Source: an uncultured Pseudomonadota bacterium (lineage in GTDB: Bacteria; Oederibacteriota; Muellerivitia; Muellerivitales; Muellerivitaceae). Taken from it: 64,000 nucleotides of DNA. Below the pieces are notes generated by a model, which was given only the letters and a program-made list of their open reading frames with translations, searched no databases and was not told where the DNA came from. Of this stretch, positions 7,870-44,053 are shown in pieces. The stretch covers positions 64,001 to 128,000 of the forward strand of contig CAVYRH010000003.1 of assembly GCA_963770835.1 (NCBI GenBank). The letters are read 5' to 3'. The translations under genes were made by a program, and so were the position numbers. Each line of letters begins with the position of its first letter. The stretch's first letter is position 1.

Positions 7870-9631
7870 ATGCTCAAGTCGACGGGAAATCAGGGAAGCT
7901 TTTACGACGCGGATTACGTATGCGAGCAGTTGATCCCGAAGGATAGCTTCTACCGTAAATTCAGGGTAATGGTGTCCCCACTGGTTCAGGATGCTGGTCT
8001 GGATGAGATGTATTGCCAGGACAACGGCCGCCCTCCTATTTCTCCCTCTCTCCTGGCCATGGCGACAATACTTCAATTTTATAGGGGGTTTTCCGACAGG
8101 GATATGGAGAGGGCCTGCATGTTCGACATCGAGATCAAGTACGCCCTTGGGCTTCGGTTGGACGAGCGGCCCTTCGACCATTCTTCCTTAGGCGATTTCA
8201 GGGAACGCCTTCTTCAAAACAGCCGGGAGAAAGAGATTTTCGACACGATACTTGAACACCTGATCGAAAAGGGGTTGGTCAAGAAGGATGAAATCCAACG
8301 CATTGACGCCACCCATGTTTTGGCCGACCTCGCCATCCCCACCATGGTGACCCTGGTGAAGAAAGGGATATTCGAGGTTCTCAAGCCCTTGAGCAAGAAC
8401 AAGGAAGTATATGAGGGATTGGGTAAGGATGTGGATTTGCGCGAATACAACAAGGAAAAGGTCAACGACGAAGGCCCTGGAAGAATGGACCTGGAGAAAA
8501 GGAAACGCAAATTGGTGGAGGTGGTGGGTGACGCCCACAAGGTGCTGGAACACGTAAGAACCCTAAAGACCAACAAAGACCTGAAGGAGCCCATTGAGAT
8601 GCTCAAGACGGATACTCCGGGAGAACATCGAGGAAGACGAAGAAGGTAATCCCAAGGAGAGAGGCTACAAGGAGAAACCAAAGGACATCATGGTTTCTCC
8701 CATTGACCCGGATGCCAGGTTTGGGGCGAAATCCGCCACCAAGCACTTCATGGGTTACAAGGCCAACATCACGGAAAGCGTCGGAAACAACATCATCACC
8801 AACGTCAAGGTCATGCGGGGAAACGCCCATGACGCGACGACCATGGTGGAGGCCATCGTTGAGCAAAAAGAGCAGGGACTTGTTCCGGCCAAGGTTATCG
8901 GTGATGCGGCTTATGGGCGAACGATCAACCGGGAAGAATTGAAGACAAACGGCACGATGGTGGTGGCCCCCATTTACAACAAGAACGACCGAGCCAAGGG
9001 GATATACCCCAAGAGCATGTTCAAATACGACGCGAAAAAGAAGCTTTTGACCTGTCCCCAGGGCGTGACGACCAAGGCGGCCTATTGGGACAAGCTTCAC
9101 CAGCTTTACAACTTCCATTTCCCAATGGCGAAATGCAACGCCTGTCCTGTGCAGAAAGAATGTACCCGTGACGCCGACGGGCGGCGGACGGTGGGAATCA
9201 GCATTAGGCATGAGGAGATGATGGAGGCGGAGACCTATAACAGGTCGTCACAGTACAAAAAAGAAATGAAATTACGCCCGGCTGTTGAAAGAAAGCTTGG
9301 CGGAGTTGGTCCGGTATCACGGCATGAGGCGGGCGAGATACCGGGGATTAAAGAAGTTGGGCCTGCAATGCTTCTTCACGGCGGCGGCGGTGAATATCAA
9401 AAGATGGATCAAGCTGATTTCGGGCGAAAGTCCAGGTCTTTCCTGTGCCGGAATGGCGTGAAAAGGCAAACCAGAAGAGATTTAAAAGGCCAAGCAGAGA
9501 AGAAAAGAAGGGAACCGGAAAAATGACTATGGTAGCCAACGAAAAACCGAGGGAGTTTTGGGTGGATTTGATCTGCCAAGATCAAGTTGTGCCCCATCCC
9601 GAAAACTTAACCTGGGTTTTCCGACGGTCTC
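7870..9631 (+). mobile_element. IS1182-family-like insertion sequence with frameshifted DDE transposase
   Basis: GRPPISP, PFDHSSLGDFRERL, IDATH, DPDARFG, GYKANI, GDAAYG, RPAVER motifs; right end TTTTCCGACGGTCTC at 9631; left end unresolved; frameshifts near 8610 and 9297. Confidence 0.85.
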
Positions 9632-10281: not shown

Positions 10282-10836
10282 AAACCCTGCCAGCTAACCC
10301 CAGGCTTCAGCCTGGGGGCGAATGGCAGCCCGGAGGGCCGACTGAGTTTGTCGGCCCGAAGGCAAGGAACTGTGGAATGCTCTGGTCATGGGAAAATATT
10401 GGTCAGGCGCACATACCAGACACCGACTGCAATATCACCTCGTTTGGATACCCAAGTATCGGAAACGAGTCTTGCTTGGCAAAGTTGCCGTCCGCCTGCA
10501 AGAGCTGTTTAGAGAGGCGGCCCACGTCAACCGTTGGGTAATCCACGAATTGAATATTCAGCGAGACCACGTGCATATGCTGATCCAGGTTGAGCCAAAG
10601 GTGAGTGTGGCTAAAGTGGTGCAGGTGCTAAAAGGCGGTACAAGCACCAAGATCAGGCGTGAGTACCCTGAACTTGAGGAGTTTCTCTGGGGGGATAGTT
10701 TTTGGGCGGACGGCTACTTTGCGGAAAGTATAGGCACTGTGCAGGAGGAGATGATCCGCAAATATATCCGCGAGCAACAGCATGACCAGAGTATGCCGAA
10801 AGGTAGAAACCCCGGGCTTTAGCCCGGGGAGATTCA
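10282..10836 (+). mobile_element. IS200-type element (tnpA only)
   Basis: Subterminal hairpins CCCCAGGCTTCAGCCTGGGG (~10297-10316) and CCCCGGGCTTTAGCCCGGGG (~10810-10829); ends approximate. Confidence 0.85.
10388..10822 (+). CDS. tnpA: IS200/IS605 Y1 HUH transposase
   Basis: YHLVWIPKYR, DHVHML, FWADGYF, YIREQ motifs. Confidence 0.95.
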   Translation: MGKYWSGAHTRHRLQYHLVWIPKYRKRVLLGKVAVRLQELFREAAHVNRWVIHELNIQRDHVHMLIQVEPKVSVAKVVQVLKGGTSTKIRREYPELEEFLWGDSFWADGYFAESIGTVQEEMIRKYIREQQHDQSMPKGRNPGL

Positions 10837-11286: not shown

Positions 11287-11825
11287 CCCATACCGCCCGT
11301 ACTGGCAGGCCAGCCGGAGAATGGCGGTCGTCAGGAGGTCCTCATCGGGCAGGATCTGAGGGATATATCGCTGGGTGCTCCGGGGTTGGCCGAGGGCCCG
11401 GCATACGCGCCGCTGGGAGGCTCGGTGGGTTTCACACGCTTCCCGAACCGCTTTTCGGCGCTTTTCCGGGCTTAGGAGTTTCCCCGGGCCAAGTCTTTCA
11501 GGATGCGGTTATCCAGGGAGAGGTCGGCCACCACCCGCTTGAGCTGGGTATTCTCTTTCTCCAATTCCTTTAGGCGTTTGGCCTGGTCCAGCTTGAGACC
11601 GCCGTATTCTTTTCGCCAGCGGTAGTAGGTATGTGGGGTTATTTGAAGCTCACGGCAGACTTCTTCAACAGCACGGCCTTTGGACTGCTCAACCTCGGCC
11701 TGGCGCAACATGGAAATGATCTGCTCGGCGTTGTGTTTCTTCCTTGGCATAAATGCCCCCTTTTTCTTGGCCCATTATAGAAAAGTATGACTTTTCAACT
11801 GGACCAGGTTGAGGGGGGCGGGTCA
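11287..11825 (-). mobile_element. truncated IS3-family (IS407-group-like) copy: left end, orfA (11472-11750) and start of orfB
   Basis: Near-identical to 24216-24753; cut at R5. Confidence 0.95.
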
Positions 11826-12376
11826 AAAGCATCAGAATTTTTAATCCTGACTATCACAAGGTAAGCAAAGGGGAAAAAGTCGGTTATGGAAGTATTACGG
11901 TCGAGCTAACACAGGCTGAAAAAACCAGGATTATTACTACACAGGTCTTTAAAATTTTAATGAAACTAGGAATATCATTAGATTCCAAAGCGAGAGTTTT
12001 AGTTGTTTTCGAGGAAGCTCATTCTTTAATTCCGGAGTGGAATTCCGTGGCTAGTGAAGGGGATAAAAACGCAACAAATGGAACCGCTAAAGTAATTTTA
12101 CAAGGCCGAAAATATGGACTTGGCAGCTTGGTCATCACTCAAAGAACAGCCAACGTTAGTAAAAGTATTTTGAATCAATGCAATACTATATTTGCTCTTA
12201 GAGTATTTGATGACACCGGAAAAAGTTTTCTTGAAAATTATATCGGTGAAGATTATTCGAATACCCTTCCCACCTTAGAAGAACGGCATGCAATAGCTAT
12301 AGGGAAAGGCCTAAAATTAAAGCAACCTGTAATTATTCAATTAAATGACAAGAAATATATAACTCTTACTTCTTGA
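11826..12376 (+). pseudogene. HerA/DUF87-like ATPase C-terminal fragment
   Basis: VVFEEAH Walker B, QGRKYG, ITQR, ILNQCNT; 5' part replaced by IS3. Confidence 0.8.
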
Positions 12377-17892: not shown

Positions 17893-17920
17893 TGTCCACG
17901 ACGGGGACCCATCGTGGACA
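17893..17920 (+). repeat. 28-bp site S3 TGTCCACGACG-GGGACC-CATCGTGGACA
   Basis: Consensus copy; IS110 begins at next base. Confidence 0.95.
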
Positions 17921-17994
17921 GGTAACATGATGGCCATTCCACCGCCGGGATTAAACTATTCCCGGTGAGTAGCCACTCATAAGGAGGAATGACC

Positions 17995-19065
17995 ATGAAA
18001 CAGATTAGCAAAAAAGGATTCCAAGGCAAGGAGGTATCCAAGCGGGACGCCGTGTTTGTGGGGCTCGATGTCCACAAACGAAGTATTTACGTAGCAATCA
18101 GGATCAATGGAAAGGAAACCGGAACCAAGTCTGTGCCCGCGGATTGGGAAGCTGTGGTGAAGGTTCTGGAGCCTTACCGAAAAGGGTTAAAAAAGGTCGT
18201 CTACGAGGCAGGACCTACTGGCTTTGGCTTGGCACGTCGCCTTCGGGAAGTGGGATACCCATTGGACGTCATCGCCCCGAACAAAACACCTCGTGTAGCT
18301 CAGTTGGAAACAAAATCCGACCGGTTGGACTGCCGCAAGCTGGCGGAGTACGCCGAAAAGGATCTCTTGCGGGCTGTGGCGATCCCAACCCTCCAGGAAG
18401 AAGCGGATCGGCAAGTGGTGCGTTTGAGAAACGCGATGGTGGAACAAAAACGCAAGGCCAAACAAAGGATCAAAAGCTTTTTCCTCCAATATGGATTCAA
18501 GGAACCTAGAGGGCTGGATTACTGGACCCACGAGGCCATCGGAGTTTTGCGGGATATGGAACTGCCGCCGGCCCTGAGATTCACGTTGGATAGCCTATTG
18601 GAAGATCTCTTTTACTTTGATAGGCAGCTTAAAGACGTGAACATACGTTTGCGGGTCATGATGAAGGACAAGGCCTACGAGAAAAAGGCTAAGATCCTCA
18701 GGTCCCACCCGGGAGTGGGTGAAGTAACGACCCTGCAAATGTTAACGGAGATTTACCAGCCGGAGCGCTTTCAAAACGCCAAACAGGTGGCGGCTTACGT
18801 GGGGTTGGCCCCAAGGATCAGGCAAAGCGGAGAAACTCGAAAGGAAGGCCATTTGCAGAAGGCCGGAAAAGGAACCTTGAGGGCTACCTTAGTTGAAGCT
18901 GCCTGGTCATGGATTCAAAAGGATACCCAGGCCAACCGCGTTTTCCGCCGGTTCGTCCGTAATACGGGGCATGTCAACAAAGCGATTGTGGCAATGGCTC
19001 ACAAGCTTTTGATTCACCTTTGGACTATGTTGGTTCGAAAGGAAGTTTATCGGCCCATGCTCTAA
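17995..19065 (+). CDS. IS110 DEDD recombinase/transposase
   Basis: VGLDVHK, YEAG, KSDRLD, GLAP..RQSG motifs. Confidence 0.95.
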   Translation: MKQISKKGFQGKEVSKRDAVFVGLDVHKRSIYVAIRINGKETGTKSVPADWEAVVKVLEPYRKGLKKVVYEAGPTGFGLARRLREVGYPLDVIAPNKTPRVAQLETKSDRLDCRKLAEYAEKDLLRAVAIPTLQEEADRQVVRLRNAMVEQKRKAKQRIKSFFLQYGFKEPRGLDYWTHEAIGVLRDMELPPALRFTLDSLLEDLFYFDRQLKDVNIRLRVMMKDKAYEKKAKILRSHPGVGEVTTLQMLTEIYQPERFQNAKQVAAYVGLAPRIRQSGETRKEGHLQKAGKGTLRATLVEAAWSWIQKDTQANRVFRRFVRNTGHVNKAIVAMAHKLLIHLWTMLVRKEVYRPML

Positions 19066-19069
19066 AGAG

Positions 19070-19235
19070 GTTTCAGCCTCAGTTTCGTGATTCGACCCCT
19101 TAGGAATGACCACGAGTTTTAGCTGTGCCTTAGGCACGTTGGACAGGTGGTGGCTTCCCTCAGGATTATCGAATTCTTATCTTGTGCCTCGAGCACGAAT
19201 AGCAGCGTGAATCCACGAAACCAAAAGGCTGACCG
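19070..19235 (+). ncRNA. putative bridge/seek RNA of the IS1111 element
   Basis: Two parallel loops with GTGCC..GCAC hairpins followed by TTGGACAG (target-like) and ATAGCAG (IS-end-like). Confidence 0.65.
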
Positions 19236-19312
19236 TAGGAGAAAATTGGACTTGAGGAATGGCCTCATAGCAGGAATGGCCTCATAGCAGCTATATTTGA
19301 TTGGAAGACTCA

Positions 19313-20583: not shown

Positions 20584-20611
20584 TGTCCACGACGGGGCCC
20601 ATCGTGGACAT
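20584..20611 (+). repeat. 28-bp site S5
   Basis: TGTCCACGACG-GGGCCC-CATCGTGGACA. Confidence 0.95.
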
Positions 20612-21410
20612 CGTGCCAGAGGAGGGTTTGCAGAGCCAGCAGGTGAGGGAGTAGGCCGATGAGGGTCAACCCAAGTCCTGACCAGGTAATCACCAGAGAG
20701 CCTGGAAGTCAGCCCCCGGCGTAGGATCGAGAGGTCCTGCCCGAAACGGGGTCATAAACCTCATTTAGTGAGGGAACAATCCAGCAGTCCGCAACATCAA
20801 GTGAATCCTGCCGCTTCGTGAATGGGACACCGAAAGGTGCAAGGGGATGCCGAGCCGCGTGTCTACTGGCGAAGGCCACGATCCCGCTGAAGAATCTGGT
20901 AGCAAGCGGGGCAAGTCCTCCGGAGTATGGGGAACGGAATGTTGGAAAGGCTATGCAAGCAAGCTGGGAGATCCTACCCGCCAAAAGACTTGCCGCTATA
21001 AGGCTAAAACCGAAAAGAGGCAAGGGTGGGAGGAAGTCGGAGGGGGTCACAGTACCGATGAAGGGGTGGACAACAAAACCACCCTGAGGGAAGGACCCCT
21101 GCTTCAACCATGTGTCTCAAAGAAGGTAGGCGCTGGAGCATGCCCCAAAAGGGCCAACAACTCTGTAGTACCAAAGCGCGAGGCCTTTGACAACAGGCAC
21201 TATGCCGAGCGGCCAAGGGGGAAGTCGAACCTGTAAAGCCGCCGGAGGAGAGGTTGTCGGAAAGCCGTATGATCGAAAAGGTCACGTACGGTTTGACGAG
21301 GGGGCGCTGGAAACGAAGTGATGAGGGAACCTCGTTGGGGCACGGAACCGGAAACGGGGAAACAGATCAAGGAACCCTCTGCACACCATCGCGCCAGTGC
21401 TCTACTCTGC
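20612..21410 (+). ncRNA. ORF-less group II intron
   Basis: Domain V AAGCCGTATGATCGAAAAGGTCACGTACGGTTT (~21262-21295); domain VI GCGCTGG..CCAGTGCTCTACTC; EBS1-like loop at 20860-20866; no RT ORF. Confidence 0.8.
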
Positions 21411-23487: not shown

Positions 23488-24753
23488 TGACCGGCCCCCC
23501 AAGTTTGTGCCACCAATTAAGTCACTCCCGGAGTAGGAGTTCCTGAGGTCGTCATGGGCAAGGTGTTGCCTTTGGGCCCCATGACGACCGCCTCCGGGGC
23601 AGGCGGTTTATACCCCAGAGAGCTGTGCGGCCGTTTCGTATTGTACTCCTTCCTCCACCTCTCAGCGAGCACTCGGCCTTCCCACACCGTGTCGAGCAGT
23701 TCGCCGTTCAATAGTTCGTCCCTGAATTTGCCGTTGAAGCTTTCGTTATAGCCGTTCTCCCAAGGGCTTCCCGGTTCGATGAAAAGGGTCTTTACTCCCA
23801 CCTTCGGGAGCCAGTCCTTCACCCTCTCCGCTGTGAATTCAGGCCCATTGTCGGAGCGGATGTGCTCCGGCACTCCCCGTTGGACGAACAAGTCCGTCAG
23901 CACTGCCTGCACGTCGTCCGCCGTAAACTTCCGAGCTACCGGCAGGGCCAGGCATTCACGGGTGAACTCATCGATCAGCGTCAGGAACCGAAGAGGCCGT
24001 CCGTCGCTGGTCCTCTCGGCGACGAAGTCATAGCTCCAAACGTGGTTGGGGTGTTCCGCCCTCAACCTGACACAGGAACCATCCGTAAACCACAACCTCC
24101 TTCGTTTCGGCTGTTTTTTCGGTACTTTCAACCCTTCCTGCTTCCAAATCCTTTCCACCCGCTTCTTGTTGACCCTCCAGCCCTCCTCCTGAAGCATCTT
24201 GGTAATCCGCTTATACCCATACCGCCCGTACTGGCAGGCCAGCCGGAGAATGGCGGTCGTCAGGAGGTCCTCATCGGGCAGGATCTGAGGGATATATCGC
24301 TGGGTGCTCCGGGGTTGGCCGAGGGCCCGGCATACGCGCCGCTGGGAGGCTCGGTGGGTTTCACACGCTTCCCGAACCGCTTTTCGGCGCTTTTCCGGGC
24401 TTAGGAGTTTCCCCGGGCCAAGTCTTTCAGGATGCGGTTATCCAGGGAGAGGTCGGCCACCACCCGCTTGAGCTGGGTATTCTCTTTCTCCAATTCCTTT
24501 AGGCGTTTGGCCTGGTCCAGCTTGAGACCGCCGTATTCTTTTCGCCAGCGGTAGTAGGTATGTGGGGTTATTTGAAGCTCACGGCAGACTTCTTCAACAG
24601 CACGGCCTTTGGACTGCTCAACCTCGGCCTGGCGCAACATGGAAATGATCTGCTCGGCGTTGTGTTTCTTCCTTGGCATAAATGCCCCCTTTTCTTGGCC
24701 CATTATAGAAAAGTATGACTTTTCAACTGGACCAGGTTGAGGGGGGCGGGTCA
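23488..24753 (-). mobile_element. complete IS3-family (IS407-group-like) element, orfA 24401-24679 and orfB to 23517
   Basis: TG..CA ends with imperfect IRs; HTH orfA; WSYDF, SDNGPEF, ESFNG DDE motifs; unrelated flanks, no TSD. Confidence 0.95.
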
Positions 24754-25144
24754 GAGGAACCAAGCCTTTTACAACCACGCAACCGACAGCATTACCCTTC
24801 CTTTTAAAGAGGCTTTTAAATCCACCGAAGGATTTTACGAAACGGTTTGCCATGAGCTCATTCACTGGACGGGAGGCCCGGCCCGGCTCAACCGCATTTC
24901 CAAAGCGGCCTTTGGTTCCGAAGAATACGCCGCCGAGGAGCTTGTGGCCGAGTTTGGGGCTTCGATCCTTTGCGCTCATGTCGGAATCCCTTACAAAACC
25001 AACCACGCCGCTTATATCGCCTCATGGATTAAGAAGTTAAAAGACGATCCGAAGGCCCTTTCCACCGCCATCACCCAAGCCCAAAAGGCCGTTGATTTTC
25101 TTTTGAAACCCGCCGCAGACGAAATAATTAAGGAGGTAGCTTAA
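24754..25144 (+). pseudogene. ardC: ArdC-like antirestriction/ssDNA-binding protein C-terminal zincin domain, 5'-truncated
   Basis: AFY....D.I.LP, HELIHWTG...RLNR, YAAEELVAE.GA, HAAYIASW. Confidence 0.85.
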
Positions 25145-26007: not shown

Positions 26008-29000
26008 CCCTTTATGAGACCTGGCGCGAGGACAACACGGTGGAGTACGACTTCGACGTTCCCCCGGGCCTCTACCAGGTTAACTGCCACTGGGCCGAAA
26101 CCACCTACGATACCCCGGGTGAAAGGGAGTTCAACGTCCTGGCGGACGGCCAAACCCTGGTTTCCCCCGTGGACCTGCTCACCCTGACGCCCGAGGGTAA
26201 CGCCTACAACACGAGTTTCTACGACATAAATGTCCAACTGCCCCAACCTCAATTCCTGGGTTTGGATGGCAACGAAAACCCAATCTACAGCGCGGTGCCT
26301 CCCTATGGGATTCTTGCCCTGAAGTTCGTGAAGACCAAGGGCTCCTTGGGCGGGGCGATGATTTCGGCCCTTGAGGTCATCGGGGAACAGCCCGTGCCCA
26401 CCATCACCCCGACGGGCACTTACACCCCGCCCCCGACCATCACCTTCACCCCAACGCCCAGCCCCACGTCCACGCCCAGCCCCACCCCGGCGGCCGCCGG
26501 GCCTTCTCCGACCTACACCTTCACGCCCAGCCCAACGGGCACCCTGGTGCCTCTTACGAACACCCCAACAGCCACTCCAACTGTATCTCCCACAGCTTCA
26601 TTCACCCCCGTTACCGGAGCCTATACGGCCCGCTTGGAGATGGTTGGGCCCAACGTTGTTTCCCGGGCAACACCTGGACCACGGACCAGGAGTACAGCTA
26701 CGGCGGGGCAGGATGGCTCATCGAGGGCCAGCCCGTTTATACGACCGACCCCATTTCCGGCATAGGCCAGGCCAGCGTTTCGCTTTTCCAGTATTACCGT
26801 GAGGGCCCGGCTCCCCCGTCCGGCTTTGGCCCAGCGCTGGAATACCGCTTCGACGTTCCGAACGGCCAATACCAGGTCACCCTCAACTTCGCCGAGGCAG
26901 AAAACCTCCAAGCCGGGGCGCGAGTATTCAGTGTTTTGGCCCAAGGGCTGACGGTCATTTCCAACCTGGATATTTACAAAACGGTTGGCTTTGAGACGGC
27001 CTTGAGCCAAACCTTCCTTACCACCGTCAACAATGGAACCCTCGACCTCCAGTGGATCGCTTCGGTGGGCAACGCCACCATTTCTTCCATCCAGGTCTTA
27101 GGCCAGCAAGTACTTCAGACCCCGACATCGACCCGCACGCCCGTTTCCGGGGCCCTCGATATCCCGGTGAACGTGGGGGGAACCTCCTTCACCGATTCAA
27201 CCAACAAAACCTGGTTCGCTGACCAAGCTTATACCTCCGGTGGTTATGGTTACGTGAACCCCCAATCGGCCTTCTTCACCAGCGACACGGTGGATGGGGC
27301 GGCTCTCAAGGACCAGCCGCTTTACCAGGATTGGCGGGAAGGCACCAGCCTGGAATACGAATTCACCGTTCCCAACGGCAGCTACCAAGTGAACCTCTAC
27401 TGGAACCAGATCGCGGACACGCCCGGCGAGTATAACTTCAACGTCCTTACCCAGGGCCAGACGGTCGGCTCCAACCTTGACCTTTCCTTCGAGGGCCCTT
27501 ATTTCAGCGCCGTGACCCAGTCCTTCTACGACGCAGCCGTGACCAACGGCATTTTCGACGTCCAACTGGATTCTCCCACGGATTTCGCGGCCTTAGCCGG
27601 CATTGAGGTCATCGGGGAACAGTCCAACCCCACGGCGACCTTCACGCCCACGGCAACTCCCAGTTTGACCCCAACCGGTACACCCACAATAAGTCCCACT
27701 CCCACTGGCACTTGGTACACCTCCACGCCCACCGGAACCCCGACACCCACCGCTGTTCCACCAGCCTTGTTCGCCTCCGTGGATTACGTCCAGGAACTTC
27801 CCCCCAATTCCACCGCGACGGTCACTGCTGATGGCGCCCGGGTGACCACCCGGATCAACATCATCGGAACCGCCAACGGCAACTTCTCCCCCGCGCCGCA
27901 AGGATCGGCATCCAAAGCGGTTGGTTCCTGCTCTACCAGCCCGTCAGCGGGACGGGTACGGCGGTGACCATCGCCACGGGCACCAACCAGGTCAACGAAG
28001 GTGTCTTGGGAACCCTCGACCCGACCCTTCTCTTGAATGGAACCTATAACTTATTGCTTTTGGCCATGCAGCCGGATGGGACCAACACCAACTGGGTTGT
28101 GGCCAACATCAGCATCGACGGCAACCAGAAGGTGGGGAATTTCACCCTTTCCTTCACCGACCTTAACGTGCCCGTTTCAGGCCTCCCGATGCAAGTGGTA
28201 CGAACCTATGACAGCCGAAACCAGAACCAGGGGGATTTTGGCATCGGATGGACCCTGGATATCCACAACGTCCAGGTGGAGGAATCGGGGGTGATGGGCG
28301 ACGGATGGCAATCGGTCATTCAAGCCGGAACCGGATTAGATGGCGCGTTCAGACAAATCTTCATATCCTCCACCCAATCCCATTTCGTGGACATTGTATT
28401 GGGCAACGGAAAGGTTTACTCCTTCGAGCCGCATTTCCTGGATGTCTCAGACAACGACGTGGCGCCCGGAGGGAAGGGGGAACAGGATATATCGGGCGGT
28501 ACTTACGGGGTGTTATTCAAACCCCTGTTCGGAACCGCGCCCAACTGCACCCTGGTACCCATAGGCGGAAATGGCAAGCCTGTGACGGACGTCTCTGCCA
28601 ACAGCTCGCCCGACGTCGTTCCCGATGTGCTTAATTGGTCGGATGCTTCGGACTCGGTGAACGACATTAACGGAAGTTACGATCCACAAAGGTTCCTCTT
28701 CACCGATGAAGCCGGCAACCAGTACATCGTGAACACCTCCACGGGCCTGGAACAGATGACGGCCCTCAATGGGGATATGTTAAAAGTGGACAACGCCGGC
28801 ATCCACTGGGTCAGCGCTTCCCAAGCCGGCCATAAGGACATCCTCTTTACCCGGGATAACTTCGGCCGCATCCAGCAGATCCAGGACCCCGCGGGGAACC
28901 TGTACCACTACAGCTATACCGACGGCAAGGGCAACCTGACGGCCTTCCAGGATCCGGCGGGCGCGGCCAAGAGGGCAAATGGACACTTATACATACAACA

Positions 29001-32000
29001 ATACCCACGGGCTCTTGGCCATCAAGGACCCCCTGCTCCAGACGCCCATCCGAAACGACTACGACGCCAATGGCAGGCTCGTCGACACCTACGACGCGAA
29101 CAACAACAAGATCACCTACAATTACAACCTGGCCGCCAACAGTGAATCGGTGACCGACCGGGCGGACGCGCCCACCAGCTATGTCTACGACGACGAGGGG
29201 AACGTTACCCAGGAAACCGACCCCCTGGGCAATGTGACCCATTACACCTATTCGTCCGACGGGTTCAACAACAAGACCAGCGAGCTTTTGCCGGGCAACT
29301 CGAGGGCCAACACTTATATCTACGGCGACCCCAACAACCCCCGCAGCATCACCGAGCAGGTCGACCCCGATGGCGACAAGACCTTTTACACCTACGACGG
29401 CCAGGGCCATGTACTGACGACGACCGACCCCAACGGCAACGTGGCCACCAATACCTACGACATCCACGGAAATCTTACGTCAAGCAAGGCCGCCCAGGAT
29501 CAGCCGCCTTCCGGCTACCAGTACGACCCCAATAGCAACTTGCTCCAGCAAACCGACCCGGCGGGGATCGTGACAGCCTACGGTTACGATTCCTCGGGCA
29601 ACCAGAATGCGGTGACGGTGGCCTATGGCCGCGCCAAACAGCAGGTCACCACTTACACTTACGATTCCAACGGCAACCGTTTAAGCCAGACGCTAAACAA
29701 CCCATCCGGGTAAGGCAACCAAACAACCCTCTACCAGTACGACGGCAACAACCGGCTGGTCACCACCATCTACCCTGACGGCACCAACACCAGCACCACC
29801 TACGATGCACTGGGCCACACGGTTTCCACGACGGACCAGAAGACAAGGGTGACTTTACATTATTACGATCCCATGGGCCGTGCCACGACCATCCAATACC
29901 CCGACAACCGCAAGAGCGTATACGACTACGACGTCAACGGGAACCGCCAGGACGACACCGAATACGGCACGGATGGAATATCCCGGAATACCCATACGGA
30001 TTACGACCAGGACAACCGGCCCTACGAGGTGGACTATACCATCGGCTCGACCCAGTCAAAATACAACCCTGGCCAAGGGGCGGTAACCCAGTTCGAGGAC
30101 GAAAACAACAACTTCACCTACAAGTATTACGACCAGGCCGGCCGCGCGACGTCCATCCTCGCCGGGGCTGGGGGCATCAACCAGGAAACCCAATACGGCT
30201 ACGACCCGAACGGCAACCAGACGGCAGTTACCGTGGCGAATCAAGTGCAGTCCAACACGGGTTACGACAGCCTCAATCGGGCCGCCACCGTCACCTACCC
30301 CTCCCCAGGGACAAATGTTGCCACCCATCATCACGACCTATGACCCGGATGGGCGGAAACTGAACCAGAACGACCTGGCTGGCAAGGTGACCAACTACGG
30401 CTACGACGGCCTGGGGCGCTTGACGGGCGTAACCCTGGTTTCATCCTCCGGCAACCAGGGCGAAAGCTACACCTACGACCAGGCGGGCGACGAGTTGAGC
30501 CAGACTGACGCCAACGGCCACACCACCCGCTACACCTACGACAACATGAACCGGCGCAAGAGCCGCACCCTTCCGGGCGGCCAAAAACGAGACCTACAAC
30601 AGCTACGACGCCACGGGCAACTTGACGTCCAAGACGACCTTCAACGGCCAGGTAATCGCCTACGCCTATACCCAGCTGGACGATAAACTTCAAACGGAGT
30701 CCCTGCCCGAGTACAACATCACCTTCAATTACGACGACTTCCTTCGCCGCCAGAGCATGACGGACGTGAGCGGGACAACCACCTACAATTACGATTCAAG
30801 GGACAGGATGACGGCCAAACAAGGCCCCGAGGGCACTCTTTCCTACACCTACTACAACCACGGGGAATTGGAGAGCGTTAAATCCTCTCTACCAACGGCA
30901 CTAACGTCAGTTACACATACGACTCCCTGAACCGGCTGACGACGGTGAATGACACCCATTGGACCGGGAATACAAGTTACACCTACGACCCCTTCGGCAA
31001 CCTGGCTTCCGTCAACAAGCCCAACGGCGAATCGGTGACTTACACCTATGACGTTTTGAACCGCCTGAACAGCATGGCGGCCACGGTCAACGGTTCGTCC
31101 ATTCGTTCCTACACCTACACTTTGGGCCCGAATGGCAACAGGACAAATGTGGCCCCGCAGCTCTCCAACCGGGCCGTGACCTACACCTACGACGACTTAT
31201 ATCGTCTCACGGGGGAAATTGTATCGAGTGACCCGGCGACCCAGAATATCGGGGCCATCAGCTACCAGTATGACGCCGTAGGGAACCGCACCAACCGGAC
31301 ATCGGGGATCACGGCCATTTCAAGCCAATCCCCGTCTTATGACGCCGGTGGGGACGACCGCATGACCTCGGACGGAACTTCCAGTTATTCCTATGACGCC
31401 AACGGCTCCACCACCCAAATAGGGCCAAACACTTACGCTTTTGACAGTTTAGGCCGGATGACCCAGGCCACGGTGGGGGACCACAACGACCACTTATGTT
31501 TACGATGGCGACGGGAACAAGATCCAGCAGGTGGTGAACAACGGGACGGGACCAGTGACCACAAGTTACCTAGTGGATTCCACCAACCCCACCGGCTACG
31601 CCCAGGTGCTTGAGGAAAACCAGGGTAGCGGTGTGAATTTGGTTTACACCTATGGTTCCAGCCGGATAAGTGAAGACCAGTACAACGGGACAAGTTGGAA
31701 TTTGAGCTTCTATGGCTATGACGGTCAAGGATCAGTGAGGTATTTGACCGACTCCCGCTTGGAACTAAAACGGATACTTACGATTACGATGCGTTTGGGA
31801 CACTTATTAACCAGACCCAGCCGTGGGTGCGCCCACCCCGAATGAGTTTTTCTTCGATGCCGAGCAATTAGATGGGAATTCAGGTTTCTACAACCTAAGA
31901 GCGCGTTGGATGAATGTTGGAATTGGAAGGTTCCAAACGATGGACAGTTTTGAAGGGCGTCAACAACCCCATTGAGTTTGCATAAATATGAATTTTCAGC

Positions 32001-33199: not shown

Positions 33200-33307
33200 A
33201 AAGGCAAATTATTAAACTCTTTTCAATCATGCTTGTCATGGGATTGGTTTGCGATACCGCCTTCGCCTCTCCACAGCCTACCGCGGTCAACGTTCACATT
33301 CAGCGTT

Positions 33308-34368
<1,061 letters not shown>

Positions 34369-37246
34369 TACTTCCTATACCGATCCGGCAGGGAGGTCGT
34401 TCAAATACGCTTATGCGGCCAACGGTATCGACCTGACCAGCGTGACGGATAGCCAAGGCGACCAACTTTGGGCCGGGCAGTACAATTCCATGCATCAGCA
34501 AGTGGTAGTTACGAATGTTGCCGGAAAAAGTTGGCACTATTCCTACAATGGCTTTGGACAGCCGACAGGAATTACGGCTCCTTTAGGTGAAACGACAACT
34601 TTAAATTACGACACTAGTAATCAGCTTTCTTCCCTGATCCCACCCCAGTCCGGGGCTGGTGTGACCTTAGGTTACGATACTCTTGGCCGAGTGCAAAATA
34701 TTAGCAGTGCGGACAAAGGAACGGTTAACTACGCTTACGACGACGGGAACCGTTTGACTCAGGCTAATTACCCGGATGGAACCACTGCCGGGTTAGGATA
34801 TACCAACTGGACCCTGACCAGCGCCCAGGATCGCCTGGGCCAGACTACGAGCTTCAGCTACGATTCCAACCAACGGTTAACGAGCTCGAGAACCCCCAAC
34901 CAACAGACCACTCAATACGGTTGGAGCGCGGGGGGAGGGTTAAGCTCTCTAGCCGATCCAGCTGGAAACCAAACAAGTTATCAACGCGACCTAATGGGGA
35001 GGGTGCTGAACAAAGCTTCTTCCGATGGGTCACAATATTCCTATCGTTATGGTTCCAACGGCGGCATGCTTTCGCAAGTGACTGACCCGTTGGGCCAGGT
35101 GACCCAATATTCACACACCGTGGATGGAAAGATTTTGGGGGTTAATTATCAGAACACCCAAAACCCCACCCCTGGTACTACCTACCAATATGATTCAGTC
35201 TTGGGCAGGGTGGCAACAATGGTGGATGGAACCGGTTATACGACCTATTCCTACAACCCTGTGGGCCAGGTTGGTGGTGGATTGTTGAAATCGGTTGCAA
35301 GCCCCGTTGGCCAAACCACAGCTTTCACCACTTATGCCTACGACAGCGACGGAAGAGTGGTGCAAAGGGCCATTGACGGCGTCCCGGAGACCTATACCTA
35401 TAATTCCCAAGGCCAATTGGTGGAAGTGACCAACCCCCTGGGGGACCCCAAGTTGAGTTATGACTCAAACACGGGAAGGCTGGTTTCGGTGGCCGACAGC
35501 ACAACGGGACAAGCGACCCAATACGAATATTATAATCCTACTGATCCAAACGGGGCTTCAGGACGTTTGAAAAGCATTACCAACTTGAATAAGAGCAACC
35601 AGGCCGTTTCGTCCTTTAATTACTCCTATGACCAGCTTGGACGAATCACCAATTGGGGCCAGAGCCAAGGTGGGACGTCAAAAACCTATGCCGTTGGCTA
35701 CAATCCCGCAAACCAATTGAAGGGGGTGACGATGGTTTCGGGCACCAATGGATTCGATGGCCTCACAGCGGGCCAGGTCGTAAGTTATCAGTACGATAGG
35801 GCGGGAAATCGGGTGTCCGAAAATACTCCCACTTACCAAAATGGTTTTGGCACACCTAACAATCTTAACCAATTGAATCAAGTATCCTCAAACCCCCTGT
35901 CGATGAGCTTGATTACGGATAATTCGCCCGGTGAAGCGGCCCAGATCAATGGCCGGATGGCCCCGATTTCTGGTAATGGCACGGTAGCCTCCAGTATTGT
36001 GCCCAGCGCGAGTAGCACGACAACCAGCGCCGAGGTGGTGCTGACGGAACCCAACGGGGCCACCACCGCTGTGGGTGTAACCCTCCTCAACAAACAGCCC
36101 GTAAGTTTCGATGCCAATGGTAACTGCACTTCTGACAATCAGTACAGTTACGTGAGTGATGGGGTGAACCGGCCCATTGCTATCAATAACGGAAATGTCC
36201 TGCCCGGCGGTACGGCAGACACATTGGTTATGAAATACGACGGTAAAGGGAGGCGGGTGGGACTCACGGCCTTAAATTTGGGTGGGCCGGTGACGAACTT
36301 AAATCAACTTTCAGGTGCAGCCACGGTCTCGGGCAAGACTTATGTGTGGTGTGGGAACAGGATTTGTGAGGAAAGAGACGCAACAGGCAAACAGGTACTC
36401 AAAAGGTTCTTTTCCAACGGCGAGCAAGACAATGGACAAAACCTGTACTATACAAAGGACCATCTGGGAAGTGTTCGTGAGGTGATGGATGCTTCCGGAA
36501 ACATCCAAGGTCAGTTTGATTATGATCCGTGGGGCAGGCAGACCCAAATAGCCGGAACTATGCAGCCTTCGTTTGGCTACACTGGTCATTTTCAGGAACC
36601 GACGACAGGGTTACTGCTTTCCAAATATCGTGTCTATAACGCGGATATGGGAAGGTGGACATCGGGAGACCCAAAAGGGCAGGTCGCGGGAGCAAACATT
36701 TATTCTTATGTCAGGAATAATCCGCTTGGTAAGATTGATCAACTTGGGTTAGATGGTGATGATTACGAATCGTCTGATAACACATCGGATGAAGATACTA
36801 GTGACAATACTGTGGCTGTGGCTGGTGGAATTTTAAAATCATTTGCTGGGGTGGTTGATTTTGTTTATGGAGCGGGTGAAGTTGCTTTGTCATTAGCAGA
36901 TGAGGGAACTACAGCCCCACTTGGTGTTCTTACAATGGGCACGGGTTTTTATGATATGGTGACCGGAGCAATTCAAACGGGCGTCGATCTTGCTGGGAAT
37001 AATTATGTAGTCGATCCGGCAAGTCAACTTTTGGAACAAAAAGGATTTAGAGATTTGGGTCCAATGTTGTGGACCAGTCAGGTAGGGCTAGATGCTCTCC
37101 AAGGTACTACTGGAAATATTATTGGAGGTCTTTTAGATTTTGGAGGAATCAGTTGCGACTATGTGGCATTGCAAACTGGAGCTCAATATTATTGTCCTTT
37201 TTTGGGAACAAGCACCCCTGAAAAAAATCCATGGTATAGACACTAA
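34369..37246 (+). CDS. RHS/YD-repeat protein with RHS core and variable C-terminal tip (5' part hidden by artefact)
   Basis: YD repeats; DHLGSVR, YDPWG, FGYTGH, RVYNADMGRWTSGDP, NIYSYVRNNPLGKIDQLGL. Confidence 0.9.
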
Positions 37247-38199: not shown

Positions 38200-38587
38200 A
38201 CTCGGCTCCGATTTAAGTGAATAAAAACAACAGCTTCTTCATTTTAACAGCTTCATTATGTAGGCGTGTTCCTTGGTTTGGAGGGGTAATAAAATACAAA
38301 AGCGGTTAGGCGTTTAAACCTGACCGCTTTTAAGTGTGAAAAGTTTTGTAATTAGTTAGAAGAACCCGGAGTTTCGCCGAGAAGGTTAGAATTTTTGTCC
38401 AGCGATTGGTTGAGTTGGCTGATCTGGTCGGGTGTCAGTGAATGGCTCTTGTTCTGTTTGAAAAAAGTAAATTCCTGTAAACGGATATTCCTCAAGCTGG
38501 CCCTAACGCTTTGGGCTTGTTCCTTGGAGAATTTTCCGGATTTTACCCCCGTCTGGGTTAATTTCATTTGCGTTTTGACCCGTTGGT

Positions 38588-39117
38588 TTTTTGTTCCACC
38601 ATCGCGTTTCTCAAACGCACCACTTGCCGATCCGCTTCTTCCTGGAGGGTTGGGATCGCCACAGCCCGCAAGAGATCCTTTTCGGCGTACTCCGCCAGCT
38701 TGCGGCAGTCCAACCGGTCGGATTTTGTTTCCAACTGAGCTACACGAGGTGTTTTGTTCGGGGCGATGACGTCCAATGGGTATCCCACTTCCCGAAGGCG
38801 ACGTGCCAAGCCAAAGCCAGTAGGTCCTGCCTCGTAGACGACCTTTTTTAACCCTTTTCGGTAAGGCTCCAGAACCTTCACCACAGCTTCCCAATCCGCG
38901 GGCACAGACTTGGTTCCGGTTTCCTTTCCATTGATCCTGATTGCTACGTAAATACTTCGTTTGTGGACATCGAGCCCCACAAACACGGCGTCCCGCTTGG
39001 ATACCTCCTTGCCTTGGAATCCTTTTTTGCTAATCTGTTTCATGGTCATTCCTCCTTATGAGTGGCTACTCACCGGGAATAGTTTAATCCCGGCGGTGGA
39101 ATGGCCATCATGTTACC
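38588..39117 (-). mobile_element. truncated second copy of the IS1111-type element
   Basis: Reverse complement of ~17921-18450; left end abuts S8. Confidence 0.93.
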
Positions 39118-39145
39118 TGTCCACGACGGGGACCCGTCGTGGACA
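39118..39145 (+). repeat. 28-bp site S8 TGTCCACGACG-GGGACC-CGTCGTGGACA
   Basis: Perfect 11-bp arms. Confidence 0.95.
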
Positions 39146-41993: not shown

Positions 41994-42054
41994 TGCCCTG
42001 CGGTGTGTCCCGGACGGGCCCGCAAGCTCGGCCGATAAGAAATTGTCCACGACG

Positions 42055-43995
42055 GTGCGTCCAGAAAAGGCAGGTGTGTTCAGCAAGAGATAGTCTTGCA
42101 TGGGTAATAGCCAAAGCCCATTAGCTAGGATGGCAGGCAAGCGGGAAACCAAATGCCTGAAGCCCATCAACAAAGCCATCGAAAGGATGGTGAGCGAGTC
42201 GTCGGGCCGTAACGAAAGTAAATGCACAGGTGGCCCCGAAAACACTTGCCTCGGAGGCTGAGTCCGCCGTCGTGGGACGAAAGCATCATGGGACAGCGCG
42301 GAGAAATGGCTGAAGCGCTGGAACACTCCGACGGGGTGATAGCAACGGCACGAAGACAAGGACACGCCAAGCAACTGGAGAAACCCTCCTTGCCCCAGGC
42401 AGAAATGCTTGGAGAAAGGTAGGCCGTATAACCGTGACGCGGGAAAACGGTCGAAGGTGAGAGGGTTTAGGATGGGTTCATGGTAGCGATGAAGCGGGGT
42501 AATGCCCGTGGAGCGAAGGAACCCTGCTGTTGTTAAGTCCCTCGACAAAACGGAAGGCAGTGACGGTATGAAAAAGACGTCAATTAACCTGCAAGACCTG
42601 AGACGAGAGATATACGTCAAAGCGAAGGCTGAAAAGAACTGGAGTTTCTGGGGACTGTACACCCATGTTTGCAAGATGGAAACGCTTCAACAGGCTTACC
42701 GAATGGCTAAGGTAAATAACGGAGCCCCTGGAATAGATGGGGTGACGTTTGATGCCATTGAGGAGGCCGGAGTGGAGTCGTTTCTGGAAAGCATCCGGGG
42801 TGAATTAGTTCAAGGCACGTATAAGCCCGTTCGAAACCGGAAGAAGGAAATACCCAAGGGAAATGGGAAGGTAAGAGTCCTTGGGATACCCAACATTCGG
42901 GATAGAGTAGTCCAGGGAGCACTGAAGTTTATTCTGGAACCGATTTTTGAGGCCGATTTTCAAGAAGGGTCCTATGGGTATCGACCCAAGCGGACCGCTC
43001 ATGCGGCTGTGAACAGGGTAGCATCGGCAATCGTCTGTAGAAAAACCCGAGTCATTGATGTAGACCTCAAGGCATATTTCGACACGGTAAGGCACGACCT
43101 TCTGATGAAGAAAGTTGCCCGAAGGGTTGAGGATGAAACGGTGTTGAGATTGTTGAGGATGATCCTGAAGGCCAGCGGCAAAAGAGGAGTCCCGCAGGGA
43201 GGGGTTATTTCCCCTCTTCTGGCTAATCTCTACCTCAACGAGGTGGATAAGATGCTGGAAAAGGCAAAAGAAGTGACTCGGCAAGGGAAGAACAACTATA
43301 TCGAATATGCGAGGTTCGCTGACGATATGGTGATCCTTGTTAATGGATATCCGCAATGGGAATGGTTGGCAAAGGCTGCCTACCGAAGGTTACTTGAAGA
43401 ATTGACCAAGCTCGACTTGCAAATCAACACGGACAAGACGCGGATAGCAGACTTAACGAAAGGTGAAAGTTTCGGGTTTCTGGGGTTTGACTTTCGACAG
43501 GTGAAAACCCGTCGAGGGAAATGGGGGGTGAAGTTCACGCCGAAAATGAAGGCGCGAGCAACACTTCTGGGTAAGCTCAAGGAAACATTTGGAAGCTTCC
43601 AATCTCAGCCGGTGCAGAGGGTGATTGAGATTATCAATCCCAAACTGCGTGGGTGGGTGAATTACTTTCGGATAGGGAATTCTAGGCGCTGTTTTAACTA
43701 CGTGGAAAGATGGGTCGAGAATAAAATCAGACGGCATATGATGCGTGCGAAGAAGCTCGACGGTTTTGGGCGGGATAGGTGGAGTAGGGAGTGGATATAT
43801 AAGTATCTGGGGTTGTACAGAAGCTACCAAATACGATATTACCAAGAACCGAAAGCGCTACCCGTCTGATAGGTCACATAAACTTTGACAGGAAAGCAAC
43901 AGGTGAGCGTAGTGCGGGAAATCCGCACGCTACGTTCGAGGAGGCGGGGACTGGAAACGGAGCCAGAAGGCCACCGCACCAGTCCTCGACCCTAC
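42055..43995 (+). mobile_element. group II intron with RT/maturase
   Basis: 5' GTGCG, 3' CCCTAC, domain V GAGCGTAGTGCGGGAAATCCGCACGCTACGTTC (~43905-43937). Confidence 0.95.
42568..43869 (+). CDS. ltrA: group II intron reverse transcriptase/maturase without endonuclease domain
   Basis: APGIDG, R.LGIP..RDRVVQ, GVPQGGVISPLLAN.YL, RFADD, LRGWVNYF. Confidence 0.95.
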   Translation: MKKTSINLQDLRREIYVKAKAEKNWSFWGLYTHVCKMETLQQAYRMAKVNNGAPGIDGVTFDAIEEAGVESFLESIRGELVQGTYKPVRNRKKEIPKGNGKVRVLGIPNIRDRVVQGALKFILEPIFEADFQEGSYGYRPKRTAHAAVNRVASAIVCRKTRVIDVDLKAYFDTVRHDLLMKKVARRVEDETVLRLLRMILKASGKRGVPQGGVISPLLANLYLNEVDKMLEKAKEVTRQGKNNYIEYARFADDMVILVNGYPQWEWLAKAAYRRLLEELTKLDLQINTDKTRIADLTKGESFGFLGFDFRQVKTRRGKWGVKFTPKMKARATLLGKLKETFGSFQSQPVQRVIEIINPKLRGWVNYFRIGNSRRCFNYVERWVENKIRRHMMRAKKLDGFGRDRWSREWIYKYLGLYRSYQIRYYQEPKALPV

Positions 43996-44053
43996 GGGAC
44001 CTGTCGTGGACAAAAAAATAAGGCGGAAGATACTATTCAAGTGGAGGAAGGGA

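Follow-up and report, generated by a model that had tools for sequence, protein, structure and literature searches.

A putative RNA-guided IS1111-type element on a 28-bp palindromic site in the gene arrays of an uncultured soil bacterium

Introduction

The locus described here raises the question of how an IS1111-type element comes to lie against one arm of a 28-bp palindrome that recurs in the genome of its host, an uncultured soil bacterium (G000). The window analysed comprises 64,000 nucleotides of that genome (G000:C3:64001-128000), and a first-pass annotation made from its letters alone had proposed that a bridge RNA in the 3' non-coding end of the element is programmed against this site. 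From comparisons among genome copies and homologues, we consider it highly likely that the element picks its landing site by means of an RNA from that end, whose left guide corresponds to the palindrome's outer arm. The proposal thus applies to the left guide (TGGACAG), but not to the right guide, which reads the variable flank. The sequence itself establishes to which family the protein belongs, where the element's ends and junctions lie, that guides covary with targets and that copies cluster at the site.

Results

The element, its transposase and its ends

Profile searches assign the transposase of the element (Table 1) to PF01548 and PF02371 and place it well above the cut-off of NF033542 (239.8 bits vs 140), and in its C-terminal domain GLAP at 272 and S280 form the serine motif GL-P----SG. 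Its relatives in the PDB are IS621 and ISCro4, and its plasmid relatives are distant (best 37.7% identity, most about 30%). The right inverted repeat lies 3 bases from the element's right end. Inverted repeats of about 14 bp with one bulged base are present in all nine element types compared, and the conserved bases end 7 bases outside the left repeat and 3 outside the right one in 9/9 types; subterminal inverted repeats with extensions of 7 bp on the left and 3 bp on the right are described for IS1111 elements (PMC11187229). The non-coding regions of the element measure 222-223 nt at the 3' end and 69 nt at the 5' end.

Table 1. Features of the window, in order of position.
Feature	Position	Strand	Remarks
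28-bp palindromic site (13-2-13)	17893..17920	+	right arm TGGAC|A = insertion point; element's first A restores last base
Complete IS1111-type element	17920..19288	+	1369 bp; ends by 7/3 rule; AG core ambiguity 1-2 bases
-10-like hexamer TAACAT	17923-17928	+	in left end
Left subterminal inverted repeat	17927..17941	+	7 bases from left end
IS110-family DEDD transposase/recombinase	17989..19065	+	358 aa; D27, E73, D111, D114, S280
Predicted bridge/seek RNA scaffold	19074..19232	+	nested stems around two hairpin modules; limits approximate
Right-target guide side of module 1	19114..19124	+	TTTTAGCT (19117-19124) pairs with top strand AG-CTAAAA; hypervariable among homologues
Hairpin between two target guides	19125..19137	+	GTG...CAC invariant in 7 aligned sequences
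Left-target guide TGGACAG	19140..19146	+	equals palindrome arm plus core
Module 2, likely donor loop	19174..19205	+	TTATCT, invariant hairpin, ATAGCAG (19199-19205)
-35-like hexamer TTGAGG	19252..19257	+	predicted circle-junction promoter
Duplicated right end	19255..19288	+	17-nt tandem repeat (19255-19271, 19272-19288) with right inverted repeat and 3-nt extension
Right half of target AG-CTATAT	19289..19296	+	start of downstream GNAT cassette
Group II intron B, without RT gene	20613..21410	+	starts 2 nt past right arm of 27-bp site variant (20584-20610)
Truncated second copy	38583..39118	-	left end and 160 codons (fragment 38583-39117), without non-coding end; at left arm of site 39118-39145, facing away from array
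Group II intron A	42055..43995	+	splits site after base 11 (left arm 42044-42054, remainder 43996-44012); RT 42502-43869

The 17-nt duplication of the right end is carried by all four full copies in the genome (the C8 copy minus its last bases) and is absent from the eight other element types. Joining the ends in silico produces TTG-type and TAnnAT hexamers at a spacing of 17 nt in 9/9 types, provided that the inner right end is taken for the window element; with its outer right end, the -35 and -10 hexamers are 34 nt apart. It is the flank following the outer end that fits the guide, and the genome contains no lone 17-nt footprint, so the outer end is likely the one used, in which case the predicted circle-junction promoter of the window element, with its -35 hexamer out of register, is likely weakened. 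A promoter scan of the linear element returned nothing above chance, and the circle joint was not seen in four low-depth public soil contig sets, a data type that drops rare forms.

A predicted guide RNA in the 3' non-coding end

All strings quoted by the first-pass annotation lie where it had placed them (junctions at 17920/17921 and 39118/39117, module 1 at 19120-19146, ATAGCAG at 19199-19205). Its match of the right guide to the right flank also stands, and the guide runs on further than quoted, over TTTTAGCT (19117-19124). In module 2, TTATCT faces the left end of the element with one G-U wobble, and ATAGCAG equals the right end plus the core. An alignment of homologues shows a fixed scaffold within which the loops of module 1 vary freely, module 2 being the most conserved part. 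The top-strand match precedes the bottom-strand match in the RNA and varies with the target, and the top-strand match also comes first in the RNAs of IS1111 elements (PMC11187229).

The consensus fold of the region contains 37 pairs, 18 of them with two-sided changes, a number that 0/500 shuffles reach, and slid controls drop to 26-47% paired; this fold was derived from the same seven sequences on which it was scored, two of which represent the same element. Folded as a single sequence, the region pairs the two guides together and does not differ significantly from expectation (z -1.35). Neither the donor hairpin nor the 28-bp site had a match in viral contigs.

Guides follow targets among homologues

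Homologues were drawn from GTDB genomes (5 loci), from genomes of the host family and from a pattern scan of metagenomes, in which 6/22 matches were real elements and the 16 without a transposase were dropped. The usable set comprises nine element types at 18 loci with protein identities of 41-100%, after exclusion from the covariation analysis of L014, whose non-coding region is degenerate, and of L015, a fragment. Across this set, right guides match their cognate targets at 6.93 of 8 positions vs 2.24 for non-cognate targets, a difference reached in 2 of 362,880 permutations (6.26, and 4 of 362,880 permutations, without the one-base shift allowed for L013). For left guides, the values are 3.18 of 5 vs 1.68 (824 of 362,880 permutations). 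These figures include kin that are not independent and registers set by eye on the same sequences; with close kin merged to seven types, 1 (right guide) and 95 (left guide) of 5040 permutations do as well. The covariation of loops with targets, which the annotation had put forward as a check, is thus strong.

Individual types illustrate both ends of this range. All nine right flanks of the G067 element read AGAG(G/T)(C/T)TCT, and the six that retain the complete loop reach 7-8 of 8, and homologues whose proteins are 63-65% identical use unrelated plain targets with near-perfect guide matches. Left-guide fits are weak for L055 (1 of 5) and for G067 and L013 (2 of 5), as is the right-guide fit of G048 (4.5 of 8). 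A homologue in G052 (L018, L024, L027) inserts into short GGAATTAG-type repeats, which its loops match.

The comparison also revises the core. The annotation had deduced CAG from the window element, but in 7/9 types AG is preceded by T or G on the target side, and 2/9 types share only A; because AG, or just A, is what both junctions have in common across types, the core is better given as AG.

Copies and landing sites

The genome contains four near-identical full copies of the element, one 5' fragment and one diverged right end at a contig break. The two copies in the window had been described as joined to the site identically: this is true of the junction strings (TGGACA|GGTAACATG at 17920/17921, and its minus-strand equivalent at 39118/39117), but the second copy is the 5' fragment and occupies the opposite arm of its palindrome. 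Landing away from TGGACAG was to count against the annotation's reading, and four of the five left junctions in the genome do lie at TGGACAG on a 28-bp palindrome, following TGGAC, with two copies on the right arm in array direction and two on the left arm facing away. The fifth lies at TAAGACAG, where it follows TAAGAC, away from any site and with no palindrome present, and this copy interrupts a TetR-like helix-turn-helix frame (a family recognised by eye). Its right flank, AG-CTAAAA, is a perfect match to the right guide, so that even this insertion fits guidance by RNA, and the presence of its flanks in three public soil contig sets makes an assembly error unlikely.

A sister element in a relative from the same family (92% amino acid identity) lies on the site at all three of its junctions, two on left arms and one on a right arm, and one further on-site left junction, together with a new right flank (AG-GTAAAA), came from the public soil sets. 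No exact empty allele of the window insertion was found, and the four soil contig sets showed no empty-site joint either; in G055, the start of a homologous downstream cassette stands directly behind the site with no element between (DNA 87% identical over 63 bases). The differing flanks of the on-site copies indicate that they arose by separate insertions and not from one copied cassette.

How far the guide explains the site preference

The target implied by the guides is TGGAC|AG-CTAAAA, from which the three complete insertions differ at 2, 1 and 2 positions. Among empty genome positions, site arms account for 10/126 within two mismatches of this 13-nt target, for 53/1436 within three, and for 44/482 exact occurrences of TGGACAG. 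With positions restricted to those outside ORFs, the arms account for 10/39 (two mismatches or fewer) and 53/269 (three or fewer), a correction for coding sequence that raises the share expected on the site from 4-8% to 20-26%. The probability of finding at least four in five on the site is then 0.017 (10/39) or 0.006 (53/269). The guide therefore appears to be needed, yet on its own it would predict less clustering at the site than is seen. The excess is likely due to the loss of harmful off-site insertions, perhaps together with hairpin formation at the site.

Alternatively, the element might be guided by RNA and still have no special aim, its target being an ordinary 13-nt word, with off-site insertions purged and cassettes carrying the on-site copies around. 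The raised expectation is in keeping with this account, as are the off-site copy, which combines the best right-guide match with a broken TetR-like gene, and the right guide itself, which does not read the site. We nevertheless regard it as somewhat unlikely. Four of five copies on the site remain improbable after the correction, the sister element is on the site in every case, and the differing flanks of on-site copies speak for separate insertions. Moreover, the left guide TGGACAG is identical in the sister elements and a C15 variant, while 6/11 bases on the right side differ between the sisters. Such guides are confined to the clade of the two sister elements in a tree of local homologues, which resolves just the grouping of the window element with G048/L052 (support 100/99).

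Another alternative is that the structure of the site assists targeting, in that the palindrome must form a hairpin or cruciform, or be opened by the cassette recombinase, so that 6-7 bases of the arm suffice. The 28-bp site folds as a strong hairpin (z -3.3), flank matches of on-site copies are loose (1-2 mismatches; 4.5 of 8 in G048), intron B starts 2 nt past the stem, and ISKpn4 and ISPa11 also lie in potentially folded targets (PMC11187229). A general need for structure is, however, rather unlikely given the off-site copy, which has no palindrome, and the homologues with 63-65% identical proteins, which use plain targets.

Of the two guides, the left one alone reads sequence conserved in the site, and the bases beyond the arm are variable. 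The right guide of the sister element starts with ACC, the commonest left-arm flank (12/76 left vs 2/68 right), and the two of its insertions whose right flank is known both occupy left arms. A preference of the window element's right guide for right-arm flanks found no support, its first three bases occurring at 6/76 left-arm vs 1/68 right-arm flanks.

The second module and chance matches

A further alternative concerns the extent of the working RNA: module 1 alone could act as a short seekRNA, with the protein recognising the ends via the inverted repeats and module 2 being structural or vestigial. An 82-nt seekRNA with target matches alone supported movement of ISEc11 (PMC11187229), and one side of module 2 matches the left end in full only in L013, the other 8/9 types showing wobbles or mismatches. 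Against this stand the conservation of module 2, the highest in the region, and its behaviour where the ends change. Its loop equals the right end plus the core in 9/9 types and changes jointly with the right end in L064 (ATAGC to ATAAC), and its other side follows the left end in L013 and L055, although these events are few. We hold a purely structural module 2 to be doubtful, and the donor module appears less well supported than the target module.

That the matches are fortuitous and the target is chosen by the protein is very improbable: one 7-mer match in the 3' non-coding region is expected by chance at about 1.4% (0.014) and is weak alone, and no Rfam family matches this region, but the comparison of homologues goes beyond chance, as loops follow targets across nine types with 41-100% protein identity, including 63-65% identical proteins with unrelated targets.

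The 28-bp site and its array

The genome holds 88 copies of the site within seven mismatches. Neighbouring copies form direct repeats in 57/59 pairs, and the longest ORF between them is co-oriented in 53/55. The same flank occurs with different partners in six groups unrelated to the element or to intron B, and arm variants of the site travel with the flank on their own side. Sites are found in 24/30 other genomes of the family, in 1/1 of the sister family and in 0/67 others in the phylum. Integron attC sites vary in length and have GTTRRRY ends; the 28-bp site, a fixed palindrome with a GA centre, has neither property. The literature searched holds no description of such 28-bp cassette arrays.

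A short serine recombinase is the candidate enzyme, and it may work the sites. The only serine recombinase of the genome (275 aa; G000:C17:12078-12902, L094 1471-2298) ends 16 nt from a site; short frames of this kind abut the site in 8/11 matches (own included), and long homologues have it in their locus in 0/5 cases. At E 1e-40, several genomes rich in sites yielded no match to the short gene. The frame upstream of it, on the other strand, is presumably ArdC-like or of zincin type. Reading the site as a Xer/dif motif (11-6-11) found no support: a Xer-like gene is present in 29/30 family genomes and sites are present at 0/25 of the loci, with none within 13 kb around the host's own Xer-like gene. 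Noise in the GC skew of the contigs prevented the placing of a terminus.

A Pfam search detected 12 tyrosine recombinases in the genome, of which the Xer-like one, alone scored against TIGR02249, reached 76.6 bits vs a cut-off of 265. Six closely related tyrosine integrases of 356-371 aa were observed (G000:C1:7328, C2:210367, C5:233290, C5:241383, C10:70284, C26:882158), of which the one at C26:882158 has a lone 28-bp site about 700 bp away, at the end of a contig, and G000:C10:6765-10013 contains three tandem tyrosine recombinases, which we take to be RIT-like.

Other mobile elements on the site and in the window

The annotation had counted the element as the third parasite to converge on the 28-bp site, and this is borne out by two group II introns, whose domains Rfam confirms in the window. 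In 10/12 copies, intron A interrupts the site after its base 11; intron B begins 2 nt outside the right arm of the same palindrome in 16/18 cases, the other two following arm-like words. A hairpin loop of intron A predicted near 42266-42273 falls in a segment that is complementary to the arm before the intron and may represent its exon-binding element.

Further mobile sequences were noted in passing. A second IS110-family element, 30% identical, is present in six copies (G000:C2:198713, C3:41392, C11:95865, C20:121, C26:618682, C26:879965); the copies inspected lie inside intron-B-type sequence, three of them directly against RT frames, as a nested parasite. The window also contains eight copies of an identical 37-nt element (336-372, 2891, 5151, 6986, 11250, 13789, 25971, 37992), some at gene ends or within frames, which is perhaps the end of an IS1182-type element (7870-9526) or a small mobile repeat. 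There are two occurrences of an IS3-family element, one of them partial (11287-11843, 24216-24771), and an IS200-type transposase (10388-10822). An RHS gene (27964-31845) is split over several frames, and about 1 kb of poly-T followed by poly-A between RHS-repeat frames (33300-34370) is probably a sequencing or assembly artefact.

Discussion

The steps that we propose, from excision to recombination at the AG core, are inferred from ISEc11, ISKpn4 and IS621. The element would excise as a circle whose joined ends form a promoter, from which the transposase and the RNA would then be made; module 1 would pair with both strands of TGGAC|AG-CTAAAA, module 2 would likely pair with the joined ends, and insertion of the element would follow from recombination at the AG core. 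The palindromic form of the site makes either arm usable, and because insertion restores the last base of the site, the site stays intact and no gene is broken; the inserted element would then belong to the cassette next to it. The right guide, which reads the variable outside flank and has drifted between the sisters, would thereby select a subset of arms.

A broader view, which we offer as a speculative possibility, is that these arrays constitute a non-integron cassette system, built on 28-bp palindromes with a shortened serine recombinase as their likely enzyme, that is old and active enough for three separate RNA-programmed parasites to have tuned their guides to three positions of its site. 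The left guide of the element would then be locked on the arm and the right guide would be drifting to pick left-arm or right-arm flanks; a folded or recombinase-opened site would be needed, and the element would ride as a cassette passenger.

The mechanism itself is already established, and the element alone is thus not a discovery. Natural programming of such bridge recombinases, which the annotation inferred, is the rule in the family (PMC11187229, PMC11208160) and no surprise. Known beforehand were the bridge/seekRNA mechanism and IS1111-attC elements; new, as far as the literature searched extends, is the class of target. The convergence gives independent support to the 28-bp palindromes as working cassette sites, and both classes of parasite known from integron attC sites, IS1111 elements and group II introns, are found on this unrelated site. 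In the nine natural variants, one compact scaffold, whose target and donor modules can be read, has been reprogrammed in a clean series. These variants bear on the dispute over whether IS1111 elements use a seekRNA (target only) or a bridge RNA (target plus donor), and on how specificity for palindromes arises with only 6-7 fixed bases.

Comparison with known systems

Closest in mechanism are the IS1111 elements with a seekRNA or bridge RNA (ISEc11, ISPa11, ISXne4; PMC11187229, PMC11208160), with which the window element shares the DEDD transposase, the 7/3 repeats, a long 3' non-coding region, the order of the guides, a predicted junction promoter and natural re-direction among relatives. It differs from them in its distant protein and its duplicated right end. 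Four probe strings from the scaffold and right end are absent from six supplement files of PMC11187229, of which a further picture PDF may hold related RNAs.

In its niche, the element resembles the IS1111-attC group (ISKpn4, ISPst6, ISPa25; PMC11187229), which likewise inserts under RNA guidance at one end of a cassette site, and attC sites also attract group II introns, both group IIC-attC (PMC3001079) and IIB introns (PMC7923331). Unlike that group, the window element targets a fixed, near-perfect palindrome of 28 bp, lands on both of its arms with opposite orientations, and reads the site with one guide only. The element is not a member of the IS1111-attC group because its target is not attC. 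The accessible parts of the literature searched, including 10.1101/2024.01.24.577089, PMC13626964 and 10.64898/2026.08.14.744561, hold no description of this target class.

A guide aimed at a repeated extragenic palindrome is shared with the REP-targeting IS110 elements (IS621, ISPa11, ISPpu9; PMC11208160, PMC12288879). REP targets are dispersed, whereas here the palindromes share one orientation and bound gene units whose neighbours have been reshuffled. A parallel outside the family is the ISAba32 subgroup of the IS1202 family at XerCD xrs sites (10.1101/2022.12.17.520857), in which an insertion sequence also abuts module-bounding sites and leaves them undestroyed. That subgroup belongs to another IS family, has terminal repeats and 5-bp target duplications, lies 5 bp from its site, and is described in the accessible part of that source with no mention of an RNA guide.
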